In this document: positions 26,514 to 31,342 of the stretch, one piece after another
Numbering within the stretch: position 1 is the stretch's first letter
How the letters are laid out: each line of letters begins with the position of its first letter
Sequence record: NC_049385.1
Length of the DNA stretch: 31,342 bases
Direction: 5' to 3' (one strand)
Source of the DNA: Peduovirus P22H4
Position numbers and translations under genes: made by a program
The notes under the pieces: generated by a model
The model's database searches: none
What the model was told of the DNA's origin: nothing
What the model saw: only the letters and a program-made list of their open reading frames with translations

Positions 26514-28788
26514 AGCCTCCGGGCGTTTTGTCCCTCCGTCAGCATTTGCCGCAGGCACCGGTAAGGCGTTTACCGGTGCTTATGCATGGAACGCGCCACG
26601 CGAGGCCGTCGGGCGCGAAAGACCCCTTACACGTGACGAGATGCGTCAGGTGCAAGGTGTTTTATCCACGATTAACCGCCTGCCTTACTTTTTGCGCTCG
26701 CTGTTTACTTCACGCTATGACTACATCCGGCGCAATAAAAGCCCGGTGCACGGGTTTTATTTTCTCACATCCACTTTTCAGCGTCGTTTATGGCCGCGCA
26801 TTGAGCGTGTGAATCAGCGCCATGAAATGAACACCGACGCGTCGTTGCTGTTTCTGGCAGAGCGTGACCATTATGCGCGTCTGCCGGGGATGAATGACAA
26901 GGAGCTGAAAAAGTTTGCCGCCCGTATCTCATCGCAGCTTTTCATGATGTATGAGGAACTCTGCGATGCCTGGGTGGATGCGCATGGCGAGAAAGAATCG
27001 CTGTTTACGGATGAGGCACAGGCTCACCTGTATGGTCATGTTGCTGGCGCTGCACGAGCTTTCAATATTTCCCCTCTCTACTGGAAAAAATACCGTAAAG
27101 GGCAGATGACCACGAGGCAGGCATATTCTGCCATTGCCCGTCTGTTTAACGATGAGTGGTGGATTAGTCAGCTTAAAGGCCAGCGTATGCGCTGGCATGA
27201 GGCGTTACTGATTGCTGTCGGGGAGGTCAATAAAGACCGTTCTCCTTATGCCAGTAAACATGCCATTCGTGATGTGCGTGCACGCCGCCAGGCAAATCTG
27301 GAATTTCTTAAATCGTGTGATCTCGAAAACAGGGAAACCGGCGAGCGCATCGACCTTATCAGTAAGGTGATGGGCAGTATTTCTAATCCTGAAATTCGCC
27401 GGATGGAGCTGATGAACACCATTGCCGGTATTGAGCGTTACGCCGCAGCAGAGGGTGATGTGGGGATGTTTATCACGCTGACCGCGCCGTCAAAGTATCA
27501 CCCGACACGTCAGGTTGGAAAAGGCGAAAGTAAAACCGTCCAGCTAAATCACGGCTGGAACGATGAGGCATTTAATCCAAAGGATGCGCAGCGTTATCTC
27601 TGCCGTATCTGGAGCCTGATGCGCACGGCATTCAAGGATAATGATTTACAGGTCTACGGTTTGCGTGTCGTCGAGCCACACCACGACGGAACGCCGCACT
27701 GGCATATGATGCTTTTTTGTAATCCGCGCCAGCGTAACCAGATTATCGAAATCATGCGTCGCTATGCGCTCAAAGAGGATGGCGACGAAAGAGGAGCCGC
27801 GCGAAACCGTTTTCAGGCAAAACACCTTAATCGGGGCGGTGCTGCGGGGTATATCGCGAAATACATCTCAAAAAACATCGACGGCTATGCACTGGATGGT
27901 CAGCTCGATAATGATACCGGTAGGCCGCTGAAAGACACAGCTGCTGCTGTTACCGCATGGGCGTCAACGTGGCGCATTCCGCAATTTAAAACGGTTGGTC
28001 TGCCGACAATGGGGGCTTACCGTGAACTACGCAAATTGCCTCGCGGCGTCAGCATTGCTGATGAGTTTGACGAGCGCGTCGAGGCTGCACGCGCCGCCGC
28101 AGACAGTGGTGATTTTGCGTTGTATATCAGCGCGCAGGGTGGGGCAAATGTTCCGCGCGATTGTCAGACTGTCAGAGTCGCCCGTAGCCCGTCGGATGAC
28201 GTTAACGAGTACGAGGAAGAGGTCGAGAGAGTGGTCGGCATTTACGCGCCGCATCTCGGCGCGCGTCATATTCATATCACCAGAACGACGGACTGGCGCA
28301 TTGTGCCGAAAGTGCCGGTCGTTGAGCCTTTGACGTTAAAAAGCGGCATCGCCGCGCCTCGGAGTCCTGTCAATAACTGTGGAAAGCTCACCGGTGGTGA
28401 TACTTCGTCACCGGCTCCCACGCCTTCTGAACACGCCGCAGCAGTGCTTAATCTGGTTGATGATGGTGTTATCGAATGGAATGACCCGGAGGTCGTGAGG
28501 GCGCTCAGGGGTGCATTAAAACACGACCTGAGAACGCCAAACCGTCAACAAAGAAACGGAAGCCCGTTAAAACCACATGAAATTGCACCATCGGCCAGAC
28601 TGACCCGGTCGGAAAGAATGCAAATTACCCGTATCCGCGTTGACCTTGCTCAGAACGGTATCAGGCCGCAGCGATGGGAGCTTGAGGCGCAGGCGCGTGG
28701 CGCGACCGTAAATTATGACGGGAAAAAATTCACGTATCCGGTCGCTGATGAGTGGCCGGGATTCTCAACAGTAATGGAGTGGAAATGA
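26503..28788 (+). CDS. A: Rolling-circle replication initiator (P2 gpA, HUH endonuclease)
   Basis: ATG at 26503 gives 761 aa, the P2 A length; HUH motif HWH at codons 399-401 (nt 27697-27705); tyrosine pair YIAKY with Y at codons 450 and 454 (nt 27850-27864). Confidence 0.9.
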   Translation: MAVKASGRFVPPSAFAAGTGKAFTGAYAWNAPREAVGRERPLTRDEMRQVQGVLSTINRLPYFLRSLFTSRYDYIRRNKSPVHGFYFLTSTFQRRLWPRIERVNQRHEMNTDASLLFLAERDHYARLPGMNDKELKKFAARISSQLFMMYEELCDAWVDAHGEKESLFTDEAQAHLYGHVAGAARAFNISPLYWKKYRKGQMTTRQAYSAIARLFNDEWWISQLKGQRMRWHEALLIAVGEVNKDRSPYASKHAIRDVRARRQANLEFLKSCDLENRETGERIDLISKVMGSISNPEIRRMELMNTIAGIERYAAAEGDVGMFITLTAPSKYHPTRQVGKGESKTVQLNHGWNDEAFNPKDAQRYLCRIWSLMRTAFKDNDLQVYGLRVVEPHHDGTPHWHMMLFCNPRQRNQIIEIMRRYALKEDGDERGAARNRFQAKHLNRGGAAGYIAKYISKNIDGYALDGQLDNDTGRPLKDTAAAVTAWASTWRIPQFKTVGLPTMGAYRELRKLPRGVSIADEFDERVEAARAAADSGDFALYISAQGGANVPRDCQTVRVARSPSDDVNEYEEEVERVVGIYAPHLGARHIHITRTTDWRIVPKVPVVEPLTLKSGIAAPRSPVNNCGKLTGGDTSSPAPTPSEHAAAVLNLVDDGVIEWNDPEVVRALRGALKHDLRTPNRQQRNGSPLKPHEIAPSARLTRSERMQITRIRVDLAQNGIRPQRWELEAQARGATVNYDGKKFTYPVADEWPGFSTVMEWK

Positions 28789-29240
28789 TGGCAAAAATTC
28801 ACGAGGTAAAGCTGCACGCAAAATATTTTGACCTTGTGCTGGAAGGAAAGAAACGCGCAGAGTTTCGGAAAAATGACCGTAATTATGAGCGCGGGGACAC
28901 GTTGATTTTGCATGAATGGGGGCAGGGTGTGTTTACGGGGCGAAAGGTTGAAGCCCGGATAACAGATGTTACTGACCTGTCAGACTGGCTGGAAGACTAT
29001 GTCTTGCTAAGTATTGAGCTGCTTAATACAGGCGCATATGAGATTGTGAACTGGAAAGAACTTAGTGAGCGTGGCCTGGTATTCAGAATTAATCATGAAA
29101 TTATGCATCAGCTCGGCCTTGCTGTTATGTATGAACCAGAGACGGGGATGTCTGGCGGGGCAATGGTCGCCACGGATGGAGCATGGAACTATTCAGATGA
29201 ACAGATGGAGCGTGCACAGCAAAACGGGTGGCTTGGATAA
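28785..29240 (+). CDS. Hypothetical protein (P2 orf91-like) with an ASCH/DUF3850-like N-terminal domain
   Basis: ATG at 28785 overlapping the A stop, 151 aa; N-terminus IHEVKLHAKYFDLVLEGKKRAEFRKNDRNYERGDTLILHEW resembles the DUF3850/ASCH pattern as I recall it. Confidence 0.6.
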   Translation: MMAKIHEVKLHAKYFDLVLEGKKRAEFRKNDRNYERGDTLILHEWGQGVFTGRKVEARITDVTDLSDWLEDYVLLSIELLNTGAYEIVNWKELSERGLVFRINHEIMHQLGLAVMYEPETGMSGGAMVATDGAWNYSDEQMERAQQNGWLG

Positions 29241-29446
29241 TGCACAGAATACCAGGCGAGATACCGCACCATAAAACTAAAAATATCAAGCTGATGGCTA
29301 TTGTTCAGCGTTTACAGCGGATTATGGTCAACGAAAATCTGACGCCCGATGAGCTGGTCGGGTGTGCCGAAATAGTACGGGATAATTACGGGCGGCTTAA
29401 CTATATCGGTCAGTCCAGAGTTGCGCCACCACCACGCAGACGATAG
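29240..29446 (+). CDS. Small hypothetical protein
   Basis: ATG at 29240 overlapping the preceding stop; 68 aa, basic C-terminus; backbone-like GC. Confidence 0.45.
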   Translation: MHRIPGEIPHHKTKNIKLMAIVQRLQRIMVNENLTPDELVGCAEIVRDNYGRLNYIGQSRVAPPPRRR

Positions 29447-29669
29447 AGAACACCGCCAGTCGTGAAACTTGTTTTCAGGGCTGGCGGGGTTGAACAACGA
29501 GCGAAGCGAGACGTTAGTTGACAGACATATTTTTACTACGTTGGTGCTGGTTTTTGACGGTTGAAAGGAGTTAGGTTGGAGAGCTAACAACTTACAAATA
29601 TTCAAAAGTAAGCATCCTGTTGCTAACATGAGGTTGATTTTTTATGTGGATGATGCAAAAAGGATAGCT

Positions 29670-30401
29670 ATGGATACTATAATCGCTTTTCTATCACTCG
29701 CTTTTTTCGTTGCTTTCTTCATCGGGTTAATCAAGCCATCACTGGTGCGAATGCCAAACCGCAAACGTGCAAGTGCGGTTTATCTCGGAGGAGGTTTTGT
29801 ATTGAGCATAATTGGTTCAATACTCTATCCAACAGAAAAAAGCCAGCCAGTTGCTAAAACTGAAACATCAACCGTTGCAGAACACAAAGTCCAAAAAACA
29901 TTCGAATATGGTGAAAAAACACTCAAGGAATATCGGAACGAGTCAAAGAAAACACGACACGATATTGTGAATAGTTACATTGATTTTAAGGAAGTTCCAG
30001 CCACCGCGTCAGATGCGTTTTATGCCTGCATGAGTGAGTATACATTTACCAAAGATGATGAGTTGAAACTCGGTGATGTTCTTGGGTGGTGCTTTAATGA
30101 TTATGAAAATGACCCGAGTTCACTAAACAATAAAATCAATCTTGATACATTTCAGAGTAATTTTAGTGGTTGGGATGGTTCTTATCGTCCATTGGAAAAA
30201 CTAATTAAAGATAATATGAACGATGATTCATCTTATAAACATGTGTCAACGGTATATCATCTGGTTTTGAATAAAGACCCGCATGCCATTGTGAAAACCA
30301 CGTTTCGCGGAACTAATGCTTATGGCGGAGTGGTGAAACAGACGATTGCTGCGCGTGTCAATGTAGAAACAGGTGAGGTTGTATCAATTATAAGTGAGTG
30401 A
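29670..30401 (+). CDS. Hypothetical membrane protein (two predicted N-terminal TM helices); cargo gene 1 at the P2 tin/old hotspot
   Basis: ATG at 29670 preceded by AAAAAGGA; 243 aa; TM segments IIAFLSLAFFVAFFIGLI and AVYLGGGFVLSIIGSILY, then a soluble domain; AT-rich; no Walker A motif. Confidence 0.65.
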   Translation: MDTIIAFLSLAFFVAFFIGLIKPSLVRMPNRKRASAVYLGGGFVLSIIGSILYPTEKSQPVAKTETSTVAEHKVQKTFEYGEKTLKEYRNESKKTRHDIVNSYIDFKEVPATASDAFYACMSEYTFTKDDELKLGDVLGWCFNDYENDPSSLNNKINLDTFQSNFSGWDGSYRPLEKLIKDNMNDDSSYKHVSTVYHLVLNKDPHAIVKTTFRGTNAYGGVVKQTIAARVNVETGEVVSIISE

Positions 30402-30499
30402 ACTGTGCCAGAATGATAAAGATGCCAGCATTTATGCTGGCAATCATAAAAATAGTGACTAGCAAAAATTGGTGTCTGGTTTTAATGTGAGATTAGAAA

Positions 30500-31198
30500 A
30501 TGAATAGATGTAAATATATTTTAAGAGGTTTGTTGCTGAAGTTTAAAAGTATAAGTTCTATGCATTTGTTATTTGTTTTAATAACGGCTTGTCTATTCTT
30601 TTTTATAGGGTGTTACGTGGGTTATAGTGGTATTGGTTTGAATGGTGACACTAAATACCAATTAATTACAATACCTTTTTTGACCATGTTGGGTACTTGG
30701 GTTTCTGGGGTGGGAGCATTTTCTGCTGTTGCGACATCATTGTTGTTGGCACACCGTTCGCTAAAGGAAAATTCAGAAGAAATTGCTATTCGATATAGCA
30801 TGGTGTTAATGCCATCAATGTACTTACCTAGCACTACAGATACAGCAATATCAATAACCATAACAAACAAAAGAAAAGTAAGGAGTAATATTCAATCGGT
30901 TGTTTTGCAATTTTCTAATAATAAAGCAATGAATATATTGGTAAACCCCGGGACGCTTATCTCTGGCAAGTTACCGCATGTTTTAGAAGACTATGGTGAT
31001 ATATTGACGCTTATAATTCCAGAGAGCATTATCGCATCAGTAACTGATGAGGGGTTCGTAAAAGAATGTCAGGGGAATACTCTTGGAGAAGGTAGTGTCG
31101 TAGTTCACACAACGACAAAAACATTTGTAAAAAAATTAACATTACCTCAAATTAAGCCATTTAATGATAAATTTAAGTCTGTATTGACGAAACCGTAA
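30500..31198 (+). CDS. Hypothetical membrane protein (two predicted TM helices); cargo gene 2 at the P2 tin/old hotspot
   Basis: 232-aa ORF; TM segments LLFVLITACLFFFIGCYVGY and LITIPFLTMLGTWVSGVGAFSAVATSLLL, then a Ser/Thr/Val-rich domain; about 25% GC on the line counted; start uncertain (ATG 30500 has a weak RBS, alternative ATG at 30560). Confidence 0.6.
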   Translation: MNRCKYILRGLLLKFKSISSMHLLFVLITACLFFFIGCYVGYSGIGLNGDTKYQLITIPFLTMLGTWVSGVGAFSAVATSLLLAHRSLKENSEEIAIRYSMVLMPSMYLPSTTDTAISITITNKRKVRSNIQSVVLQFSNNKAMNILVNPGTLISGKLPHVLEDYGDILTLIIPESIIASVTDEGFVKECQGNTLGEGSVVVHTTTKTFVKKLTLPQIKPFNDKFKSVLTKP

Positions 31199-31323
31199 GA
31201 GGTGCGTTGCGTTGCATTTTTTTGCATCTTCAAGGATTAATTTCTGCATCTTTATTTTGCCAGTACTGATGTGCTTTTAATGGACTCATGCAACTGCATT
31301 AAAACCGCCCCATGAAGCGGGCG

Positions 31324-31332
31324 GGCGAGGCG
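31324..31332. other. cos: cos site, proximal 9 nt (GGCGAGGCG) of the P2 19-nt cohesive end
   Basis: Last phage bases before the terminal adapter; completes the cos 19-mer with bases 31-40. Confidence 0.75.
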
Positions 31333-31342
31333 CTGTCTCTTA
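31333..31342. other. Sequencing adapter remnant (start of CTGTCTCTTATACACATCT, the reverse-complement Tn5 mosaic end)
   Basis: Terminal CTGTCTCTTA matches the first 10 nt of the Nextera read-through adapter. Confidence 0.75.

Follow-up and report, generated by a model that had tools for sequence, protein, structure and literature searches.

A small intercistronic stem-loop at a cassette joint downstream of an orf97 homolog in Peduovirus P22H4, and a boundary module with a covarying plus-strand stem

What, if anything, does a small perfect stem-loop do between two accessory genes of a P2-like prophage? Here, we address this question for HP1, a hairpin in the spacer between the two cargo genes of Peduovirus P22H4 (NC_049385.1), using the whole stretch of 31,342 nucleotides, which is referred to as the window; the features under discussion are collected in Table 1. 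We find that HP1, although new, is an ordinary hairpin of the known intercistronic and cassette-boundary class, i.e., an ordinary small stem-loop at a cassette joint with at most a modest tuning effect on a shared transcript. Our preference, which is tentative and falls well short of even confidence, is for a reading in which HP1 acts on the sense strand, as a barrier to mRNA decay or as a weak pause site.

Table 1. Features at and around HP1, in window coordinates
Feature	Position	Strand	Description
BM	29445..29521	+	Long hairpin at 29450-29490 with apex GUGAAACUUGUUUUCAG, then GGGGTTGAACAACGAGC..GCGAGaCGTTAG; 95.5 bits
Gene 1	29670..30401	+	Homolog of coliphage 186 orf97; N-terminal TM segment; phrog_3403
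Candidate bridging ORF	30398..30490	+	30 codons; GTG overlaps the gene 1 stop (GAGTGA); contains HP1
T-rich tail of HP1	30410..30422	-	TCTTTATCATTCT in the window (-3.64); TTTTTATTATT in the 85% lineage (-5.34)
Extended HP1	30413..30447	+	Outer helix AUGAU (30413-17)/AUCAU (30443-47), 5-nt bulge; window and 90% lineages only
HP1	30423..30442	+	8-bp perfect stem TGCCAGCA/TGCTGGCA, loop TTTA
HP2	30475..30497	+	10-bp stem UCUGGUUUUA/UGAGAUUAGA with 4 G.U pairs, over the weak SD of gene 2
Gene 2	30500..31198	+	232 aa, predicted two-TM protein; family usually found directly after a BM
Promoter-like site	30518..30547	-	TTTAAA-18-TAAAAT, 9/12 matches; possible start of an antisense RNA of ~100 nt that would end at HP1

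The DNA around HP1 is a 100% match to Escherichia phage 9W (OM475431, Peduovirus), and the window encodes the P2 replication protein GpA. Gene 1 is 78% identical to Orf97 of 186 (E = 7e-149), and gene 2 is unrelated to gene 1. For the cargo proteins, no informative family was found in Pfam, PADLOC or NCBIfam, and the matches in PHROGs were to unnamed families only. More is on record for the 186 homolog. In 186, the LexA-controlled p95 SOS operon is annotated in NC_001317 as p95, tum, t95a ("partial termination"), orf97 and t95b ("p95 transcript terminator"), with orf97 as its second gene. For orf97, the same record carries the remark "expression from plasmid blocks 186 infection". PMC5322425 credits the definition of this operon to Brumby et al. 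1996.

The gene after orf97 varies among related prophages, with at least 10 different, unrelated genes at this place, and genes of the gene 2 family are also found where orf97 is not the immediate upstream neighbor (L068 and L071). Orf97 and gene 2 are, thus, independently exchangeable cassettes and not a fixed pair. The GC content falls from ~48-52% in the core to ~39% in orf97 and ~30% in the spacer and at the start of gene 2. Of the 42 other variants listed, 41 have an Orf97 that ends in ...(I/L)(D/E/N)N*, the exception being L065 with ...IIK*; in the window type, the ending is ...ISE*. The window-type ending places the recombination joint within the last two codons of gene 1, and the spacer, together with HP1, thus arrived as part of the gene 2 cassette.

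The hairpin itself is real and slightly larger than first described. The sequence-only reading had reported a 7-bp perfect stem-loop in a gap of 98 bp. We located GCCAGCATTTATGCTGGC at 30424-30441, where the 7-bp stem gains one pair to become an 8-bp stem, and the spacer from the gene 1 stop codon (30401) to the gene 2 ATG (30500) is indeed 98 nt long. HP1 begins 21 nt past the gene 1 stop codon and ends 57 nt ahead of the gene 2 ATG. On folding of the spacer, HP1 forms with an energy of -12.5 kcal/mol, which is the same for both strands; the stem contains five G-C pairs and is closed by a 4-nt loop. In the window lineage, the outer helix lowers the energy of the fold to -15.2 kcal/mol. In shuffles of the 98-nt intergenic region, a perfect hairpin arises with P ~0.03 for 7 bp and ~0.01 for 8 bp, and the 111-nt region around HP1 folds with z = -3.19 on the plus strand and -2.69 on the minus strand relative to shuffles. 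Over the whole window, there are 29 perfect 7-bp hairpins, nested ones included, versus 14 +/- 5 in simulated Markov-1 sequences with the dinucleotide transitions of the window, so that about half of such hairpins are background. Altogether, the non-randomness of HP1 is moderate, not strong.

Both genes flanking HP1 are on the plus strand. On this strand, HP1 has the stem and the loop of an intrinsic terminator and lacks the U-rich 3' tract. The tail after HP1, ATCATAAAAATAGTG, has a TransTermHP-style score of -2.11, close to the random mean (-2.06), and canonical terminators at this locus have tail scores of -4.3 to -5.4. The earlier statement that no T-run follows the hairpin, and that it is not a canonical terminator, thus holds for the plus strand with its near-random tail; on the minus strand, a T-rich tail, TCTTTATCATTCT (-3.64), had been overlooked. 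A promoter scan found no sigma70-like site between HP1 and gene 2 (30443-30499). Without a sense U-tract and without a promoter-like site downstream, RNA polymerase is likely to read through HP1, and sense transcripts from gene 1 probably run through it. Because the scan found no promoter-like site downstream of HP1, gene 2 would most simply be expressed from a transcript that also carries orf97. In structure and position, HP1 is a stable stem-loop without a terminator tail between cistrons, as is expected of a decay barrier.

HP1 occupies a junction at which hairpins are the rule. In a survey of 44 distinct sequence variants, the best hairpin within 90 nt after orf97 had a mean energy of -23.2 kcal/mol versus -11.6 +/- 4.2 for shuffles, and 70% of the variants were beyond the 5th percentile of the null. 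A hairpin follows orf97 in nearly every variant. In most cases it is a boundary module (BM), sometimes it is a canonical terminator (a hairpin followed by T8 in L003 and by T6 in L008, with tail scores of -5.2 and -5.4), and still other variants have different hairpins without a U-tract. Within this set, HP1 is a rare and weak occupant, among the weakest of the junction hairpins.

The BM is ~69-77 nt long and has a 16-bp stem, a consensus apex CUGAAAC...UUUCAG and a 3' box GUUGAACAACGAGC..GCGAGGCGUUAG, in which GGGGUUGAACAACGAGC...GCGAGGCGUUAG is conserved. The window contains exactly one, between a 72-codon ORF and orf97, upstream of gene 1. Two tests on the alignment show that the BM is a selected plus-strand structure. 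First, 97.8% of the cells in the stem are paired and nine pairs have double changes; 0 of 500 shuffles reach the observed values, and only 30-55% of cells are paired when the structure is slid along the alignment. Second, the stem contains 63 G.U cells and 3 A.C cells, which assigns the structure to the plus strand, with the reservations that these cells come from related sequences and are not independent, and that the test treats RNA and plus-strand single-stranded DNA alike. Of 5426 E. coli genomes, 508 contain the BM; so do 54 phage records, among them 186, PSP3 and relatives with hosts in Yersinia, Salmonella, Klebsiella and Erwinia. The BM has no match in Rfam at E <= 10 and is unannotated in 186 and in the P2-type records examined.

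What is known of 186 bears on how such a structure could work. There, the BM lies between the orf97 stop codon and t95b, and the annotated p95 transcript ends at t95b, past the BM; therefore, the BM is not itself the terminator. Moreover, the 3' end of the BM supplies the Shine-Dalgarno sequence (SD) of the next gene in some relatives (GAGGCGUUAGGAUG), and in L007 and L042 the SD and ATG of the next gene lie 3-7 nt after the junction hairpin. Such an arrangement, with the SD and ATG of the next gene right after the junction hairpin, requires read-through. Scores of the BM model at the junction are graded (43.6, 18.5, 16.8, 14.3 and 12.5 bits), and the module thus evidently decays and is replaced.

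In contrast to the BM, HP1 is known from three close lineages only (100%, 90% and 85%). The 111-nt HP1 region is present in 6 of 5426 complete E. coli genomes, at one place each and always between orf97 and gene 2, and the spacer is also found in 9W and in a few metagenomic contigs, in the same context of orf97 and a 232-aa gene 2. Dispersed host copies were not found, and with one place in each of six genomes a REP/BIME-type repeat was rejected. Searches for further variants with exact 20-mers in viral contigs and with the conserved 3' flank in metagenomes returned only the three known lineages and chance matches, and a search for the gene 2 family in species-representative genomes, which gave three distant matches, and in a large protein database returned no new variant of HP1.

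HP1 has the same sequence in the 100% lineage as in the 90% lineage. In the 85% lineage (L073-75 and L081), 14 of the 98 spacer positions differ from the window, and one of these 14 substitutions falls in HP1, which makes up 20 of the 98 nt (P = 0.17, not significant). This substitution, 30429 C>T, gives a U.G pair on the plus strand (-10.5 kcal/mol) and a C.A mismatch on the minus strand (-8.1 kcal/mol). Two others, 30415 G>A and 30421 G>A, break the outer helix on the plus strand and turn the minus-strand tail into TTTTTATT (-5.34). As judged from the 85% lineage, the strand of HP1 is ambiguous: the change in the stem favors the plus strand and the changes in the tail favor the minus strand. 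Nine of the 14 substitutions are GC>AT, and given this predominance the changes in stem and tail may all be drift. Between the window and the 90% lineage, divergence is 1.0% in the spacer, 0.8% in orf97 and 6.9% in gene 2. Extra conservation of the intergenic region was rejected on the comparison of 1.0% with the 0.8% of gene 1, and the low divergence of the spacer reflects recombination history and not selection on the spacer. We found no evidence of selection on HP1 in the three close lineages, in which the intergenic region is no more conserved than gene 1. Finally, in Salmonella phage PHB48, a 50%-identical homolog of gene 2 has a full BM upstream, together with a longer AT-rich leader, and no HP1; the lack of conservation in related cassettes, which would speak against a role for HP1, is thus seen in part.

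These data raise the question of whether HP1 does anything at all. It could be a by-product of the recombination between the two cassettes, e.g., a collapsed or diverged BM-type hairpin, or a chance palindrome carried along with gene 2. HP1 is rare and young and has no excess conservation, it is absent upstream of the PHB48 homolog, and about half of the hairpins of its kind in the window are expected by chance. The decaying BM scores at the junction indicate that hairpin decay happens, and by inspection the stem of HP1 has short strings in common with some BMs (GCCAG...TGCTGGC) and with the decayed BM of L009 (GATGCCA...TGGCA). On the other hand, an 8-bp perfect hairpin has a probability of only ~0.01 in this intergenic region, and a hairpin is the rule at the junction across unrelated sequences, which suggests a requirement rather than an accident. 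For an origin from a BM in particular, the BM covariance model has no match in 30402-30499 at E <= 10 with filters off, and local alignments of the spacer to BM-plus-leader sequences are not significant; HP1 as a degraded BM is therefore undemonstrable. HP1 also has a 3' flank in common with L004 (p ~0.02, uncorrected). The strings that HP1 has in common with other junction hairpins are a lead, not evidence of descent. We regard a hairpin without function as a doubtful but serious possibility.

The same comparisons bear on the proposal of the sequence-only reading that the palindrome binds a protein. As in an operator for a dimeric regulator that would control gene 2, HP1 consists of inverted arms of 8 bp, 4 bp apart, and lies ahead of this gene. 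However, the window contains no second copy or related half-site at <= 3 mismatches, no promoter overlaps the palindrome, and no gene or domain of a regulator was found in the cassette or among the neighboring proteins. Moreover, one arm is mutated in the 85% lineage and the palindrome is absent from the PHB48 homolog. Nothing supports this proposal beyond the palindrome itself, and we consider it hardly credible.

The T-rich tail on the opposite strand calls for closer attention. Read from the minus strand, HP1 could be an intrinsic terminator, which would end either a ~100-nt cis-antisense RNA or stray transcription from the convergent late (portal/terminase) operon. The geometry of stem and loop is typical of such terminators, and the minus-strand tail TCTTTATC is 5/8 T with a score of -3.64 in the window, while TTTTTATT of the 85% lineage matches, at -5.34, the canonical terminators of the locus (-4.3 to -5.4). 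The composition-matched chance of these tails is 0.075 for the window and 0.002 for the 85% lineage, and a terminator scan calls HP1 terminator-like on the minus strand. In addition, the promoter-like site at 30547-30518 is at the right distance from HP1, and on the minus strand an A/U-rich stretch precedes the hairpin, as in Hfq-type sRNAs. Rfam 15 over 29200-31342 at E <= 10 gave sub-threshold matches only, which were driven by the hairpin and its tail; the best were rseX (27.4 bits, with a gathering threshold of 50) and RyhB (18.2 bits, with a threshold of 55), each on the minus strand and with E >= 1.

Several of these points lose force on inspection. There is no gene or known RNA on the minus strand at this place. 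The promoter match is at background in AT-rich DNA (10 sites versus 6.7 +/- 2.4 in shuffles), and its -10 element becomes CAAAAT in the 85% lineage. The substitution in the stem of that lineage gives the C.A mismatch on the minus strand, and the two changes that improve the tail are both G>A, in line with GC>AT drift. The Rfam matches are far below gathering, and the late operon already has a terminator at 31324-31305. The tails of BMs score -3.6 to -4.0 on the minus strand, and yet the BM is demonstrably a plus-strand structure; thus, the score of the minus-strand tail of HP1 is not diagnostic. Altogether, we consider a minus-strand terminator unlikely.

A more specific version, in which HP1 would end a ~100-nt cis-antisense RNA (~30511 to 30413, minus strand) that masks the ribosome-binding site and start of gene 2, is decidedly unlikely. 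Its model would be the SymR/SymE type of cis-antisense control, which is said to have been described by Kawano, Storz and colleagues in 2007. The SymR/SymE system resembles what the antisense reading predicts, with an RNA of ~100 nt that starts a few codons inside its target, covers the ribosome-binding site and ends in a hairpin with a U-tail. Unlike that system, the HP1 locus has a weak and non-conserved candidate antisense promoter, and the target would be a predicted membrane protein of 232 aa that is not known to be toxic. If the antisense reading were true, the two-TM protein would be a post-transcriptionally gated effector in the P2 tin/old-type accessory hotspot, and the better U-tail of the 85% lineage would compensate for its weakened stem.

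Closer to gene 2, a second structure, HP2, covers the weak SD of this gene, GAGA at 30489-92. HP2 folds with -6.0 kcal/mol on the plus strand and 0.0 kcal/mol on the minus strand and is, thus, a structure of the plus strand only. In the 85% lineage, its energy is -5.2 kcal/mol and 9 of the 10 pairs are kept despite five substitutions, three of which preserve pairing. This retention is weak evidence because the changes within the stem are all transitions and the stem is rich in A-U and G.U pairs. From the folding, HP2 is predicted to bury the SD and may, in this way, limit the output of gene 2 further.

The poor access to the SD also bears on the idea that the spacer is translated. In this scenario, the candidate bridging ORF, which contains HP1, would couple translation of gene 2 to that of orf97: ribosomes that have finished orf97 would restart at the GTG, unfold both HP1 and HP2 on their way and terminate 9 nt ahead of the start codon of gene 2. 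Alternatively, the ORF would be the leftover 3' end of a gene that lay ahead of gene 2 in the donor. The ORF is open in both lineages (30-32 codons) with the same overlapping GTG, it ends 9 or 3 nt short of the gene 2 ATG and in frame with it, and the SD of gene 2 is weak and buried in HP2; an analogous overlapping ORF of 29 codons runs through the junction hairpin of L009. However, an ORF of this kind has a chance of 0.08 in shuffled spacers and survives 14 random substitutions 55% of the time. By inspection, there is 1 synonymous versus 8 non-synonymous codon changes, which argues that there is no purifying selection on the bridging peptide. Moreover, no SD precedes the ORF, and tblastn finds no relatives in phages. 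A role of HP1 within a translated ORF is, in our view, very improbable.

We return to the preferred reading, in which HP1 functions on the sense strand. Three sets of observations argue for this strand. First, the flanking genes are on the plus strand, the plus-strand tail is random, and 30443-30499 lacks a sigma70-like site. Second, junction hairpins are the rule after orf97, and the BM is a selected plus-strand structure. Third, 30429 C>T keeps the pairing on the plus strand and not on the minus strand, and HP2 exists only on the plus strand. Furthermore, the p95 operon of 186, with its partial terminator t95a, makes graded expression along such an operon established biology. Against the sense strand, the minus strand has the better terminator signature, and the 85% lineage no longer forms the outer helix.

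We suggest the following scenario. HP1 would lie in the untranslated spacer of a probable bicistronic message of orf97 and gene 2, just downstream of the recombination joint, having arrived in the sequence that flanks gene 2 on the 5' side in its cassette. RNA polymerase would most likely read through HP1, which would at most pause or weakly attenuate transcription. Subsequently, the message may be cleaved in the A/U-rich single-stranded stretch at 30443-30474, upon which HP1 would block 3'-to-5' exonucleases and the orf97 part of the message would be stabilized relative to the gene 2 part. By sequestering the weak SD, HP2 would limit the output of gene 2 further. An argument against the decay barrier is that an 8-bp stem is a modest barrier to exonucleases. 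Thus, the proposal that HP1 is an RNA element setting the relative expression of the two genes is reasonable in view of the junction hairpins of relatives and of t95a in 186, and it is weakened by the lack of visible selection and by the PHB48 homolog, which does without HP1. The effect of HP1, if there is any, is probably small, and the element is young in evolutionary terms.

The partial terminator t95a, which lies between tum and orf97 in 186, resembles HP1 as a stem-loop on the sense strand between cistrons of an orf97-containing operon; only part of transcription gets past t95a to the distal gene. By contrast, the stem of t95a is followed by a U-rich tail (CCCCATG..CATGGGG TTGTTTTGT) and t95a precedes orf97, whereas HP1 comes after orf97 and has neither a sense U-tract nor any sequence in common with t95a. 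According to Newbury, Higgins and colleagues, REP stem-loops between malE and malF of E. coli reportedly stabilize mRNA (1987). The malE-malF REP hairpins resemble HP1 in that they lack a U-tract and lie between co-directional cistrons, and their proposed block to 3' exonucleases favors the upstream cistron; HP1 differs in that it is not a repeated host element and has a shorter and weaker stem, and its activity is putative. In relatives, the BM takes up the junction position of HP1, right after orf97 or right ahead of members of the gene 2 family; like HP1, the BM is on the sense strand, lacks a U-tract and has the letters GCCAG..CTGGC at the base of the stem. Unlike the BM, which has 69-77 nt, a covarying 16-bp stem, a conserved apex and a 3' box, HP1 comprises 20 nt and is below detection by the model. 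Finally, terminator stem-loops are said to bound the "morons" of temperate phages, as put forward by Juhala, Hendrix and colleagues in 2000. As in morons, the hairpin is at the 3' edge of an independently acquired prophage gene; in contrast to moron terminators, HP1 has no U-tract, and no separate promoter was found for the next gene.

HP1 itself is of little importance: it would merely add to the small stem-loops between cistrons that adjust the expression of prophage accessory genes, in this case two. Of more note, as a by-product of this analysis, is the BM, a covarying plus-strand structure that is not in Rfam. In the two hotspot papers covered here, Rousset 2022 and the 2026 NAR hotspot paper, hairpins, terminators and the BM are absent, and control of stacked cassettes by junction structures is likewise not treated. 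In the prophages considered here, orf97 is a free-standing cassette in the P2 accessory-gene hotspot that changes partners, and its joints almost always carry a sense-strand, RNA-type hairpin. If such junction structures set how much of the upstream transcription or message stability is passed on to each stacked cassette, they would contribute to the expression of swapped-in accessory or defense genes in P2-like prophages.

A conserved structured element, here called the boundary module (BM), sits both at the P2/186 accessory-gene hotspot edge and at the junctions between stacked cassettes. Of 5426 E. coli genomes, 508 carry it, as do 54 phage records. The BM consists of a covarying 16-bp stem, whose apex (CUGAAAC...UUUCAG) is conserved, and a 3' box that is likewise conserved. 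It is specific to the + strand, with 63 G.U cells versus 3 A.C cells. Rfam contains no match for the BM and the annotation of phage 186 does not mark it; Nilsson et al. 2004 may already have noted the element.

Features of the window and of related loci
Feature	Location	Strand	Description
P2 orf91-type gene	window 28752-29240	+	DUF3850/ASCH plus DUF7415 domains; two positions upstream of BM
BM	window 29445-29521	+	conserved module, ~69-77 nt
BM copy, phage 186 (L085)	2501-2569
BM copy, L068	2782-2858
Diverged BM copy	L008 4181-4257 and L011 4190-4257		47 bits
Near-repeat	window 29541-29554 and 30469-30483	+	one copy in each leader (gene 1, gene 2)
Gene 1	window 29670-30401	+	coliphage 186 orf97 homologue, 78% identical
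Small ORF	window 30398-30490; L073 2399-2497	+ (window)	30-32 codons; GTG start overlaps orf97 stop codon
Analogous overlapping ORF	L009 3458-3547		29 codons; crosses L009 junction hairpin
HP2, second spacer hairpin	window 30475-30497	+	four G.U pairs; sense strand only
Canonical terminator	window 31305-31324	-	CCGCCCGCTTCATGGGGCGG then TTTTAATGCA; tail score -4.28

The cassette gene next to the BM in the window, gene 1, has a counterpart in 186 annotated with "expression from plasmid blocks 186 infection". The LexA-controlled tum operon of 186-type phages includes orf97, with the BM lying downstream, and in phage 186 itself the p95 transcript has to traverse the BM to reach the terminator t95b. 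In E. coli P2-type phages, orf97 follows a BM and stands alone in the hotspot, as a cassette that lacks tum; in the window, no strong sigma70-like site was seen upstream of gene 1 in 29522-29669.

The spacer between gene 1 and the gene for a predicted two-TM protein, gene 2, holds two hairpins, HP1 and HP2. HP2 is predicted to sequester the weak SD of gene 2 (GAGA; AGGA in the 85% lineage of relatives). Pairing in HP2 is retained at 9 of 10 pairs despite five substitutions; however, because the in-stem changes are all transitions in an A-U/G.U-rich stem, support is weak. The 5' arm of HP2 is also the second copy of a near-repeat in the two gene leaders, TTGGTG-CTGGTTTT and TTGGTGTCTGGTTTT, which may be due to chance (local alignment p about 0.02, uncorrected). 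Both hairpins are spanned by a small ORF, which ends 9 or 3 nt 5' of gene 2 and shares its frame. The chance expectation for this ORF is ~0.08, and its peptide gave no sign of purifying selection.

An RNA-binding role is predicted for ASCH domains, and relatives carry the label "RNA-binding protein" in PHROGs; the location of the P2 orf91-type gene near a conserved structured RNA-type element, the BM, is suggestive. The minus-strand terminator adjoins the cos end; when the genome is circular or a prophage, it presumably terminates the convergent late operon (portal/terminase).

The BM occurs in several arrangements. First, the order of the units [ORF72-BM] and [orf97-BM] is interchangeable, as the E. 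coli P2 type and PHB48 illustrate. Second, orf97 is often enclosed by two BMs, one on each side, with second copies 3' of orf97 in loci L005-L007, L010, L024, L030 and L033-L037. Third, in L008 and L011 a diverged BM lies 3' of the second cargo gene, ahead of a reverse-strand FRG-domain gene; thus, BMs can also close the far side of a cassette array. The interchangeable order and the frequent enclosure of orf97 therefore suggest that the BM may provide a portable homology or structural signal for cassette exchange and/or may function as an RNA element in a 3'-UTR or a leader.
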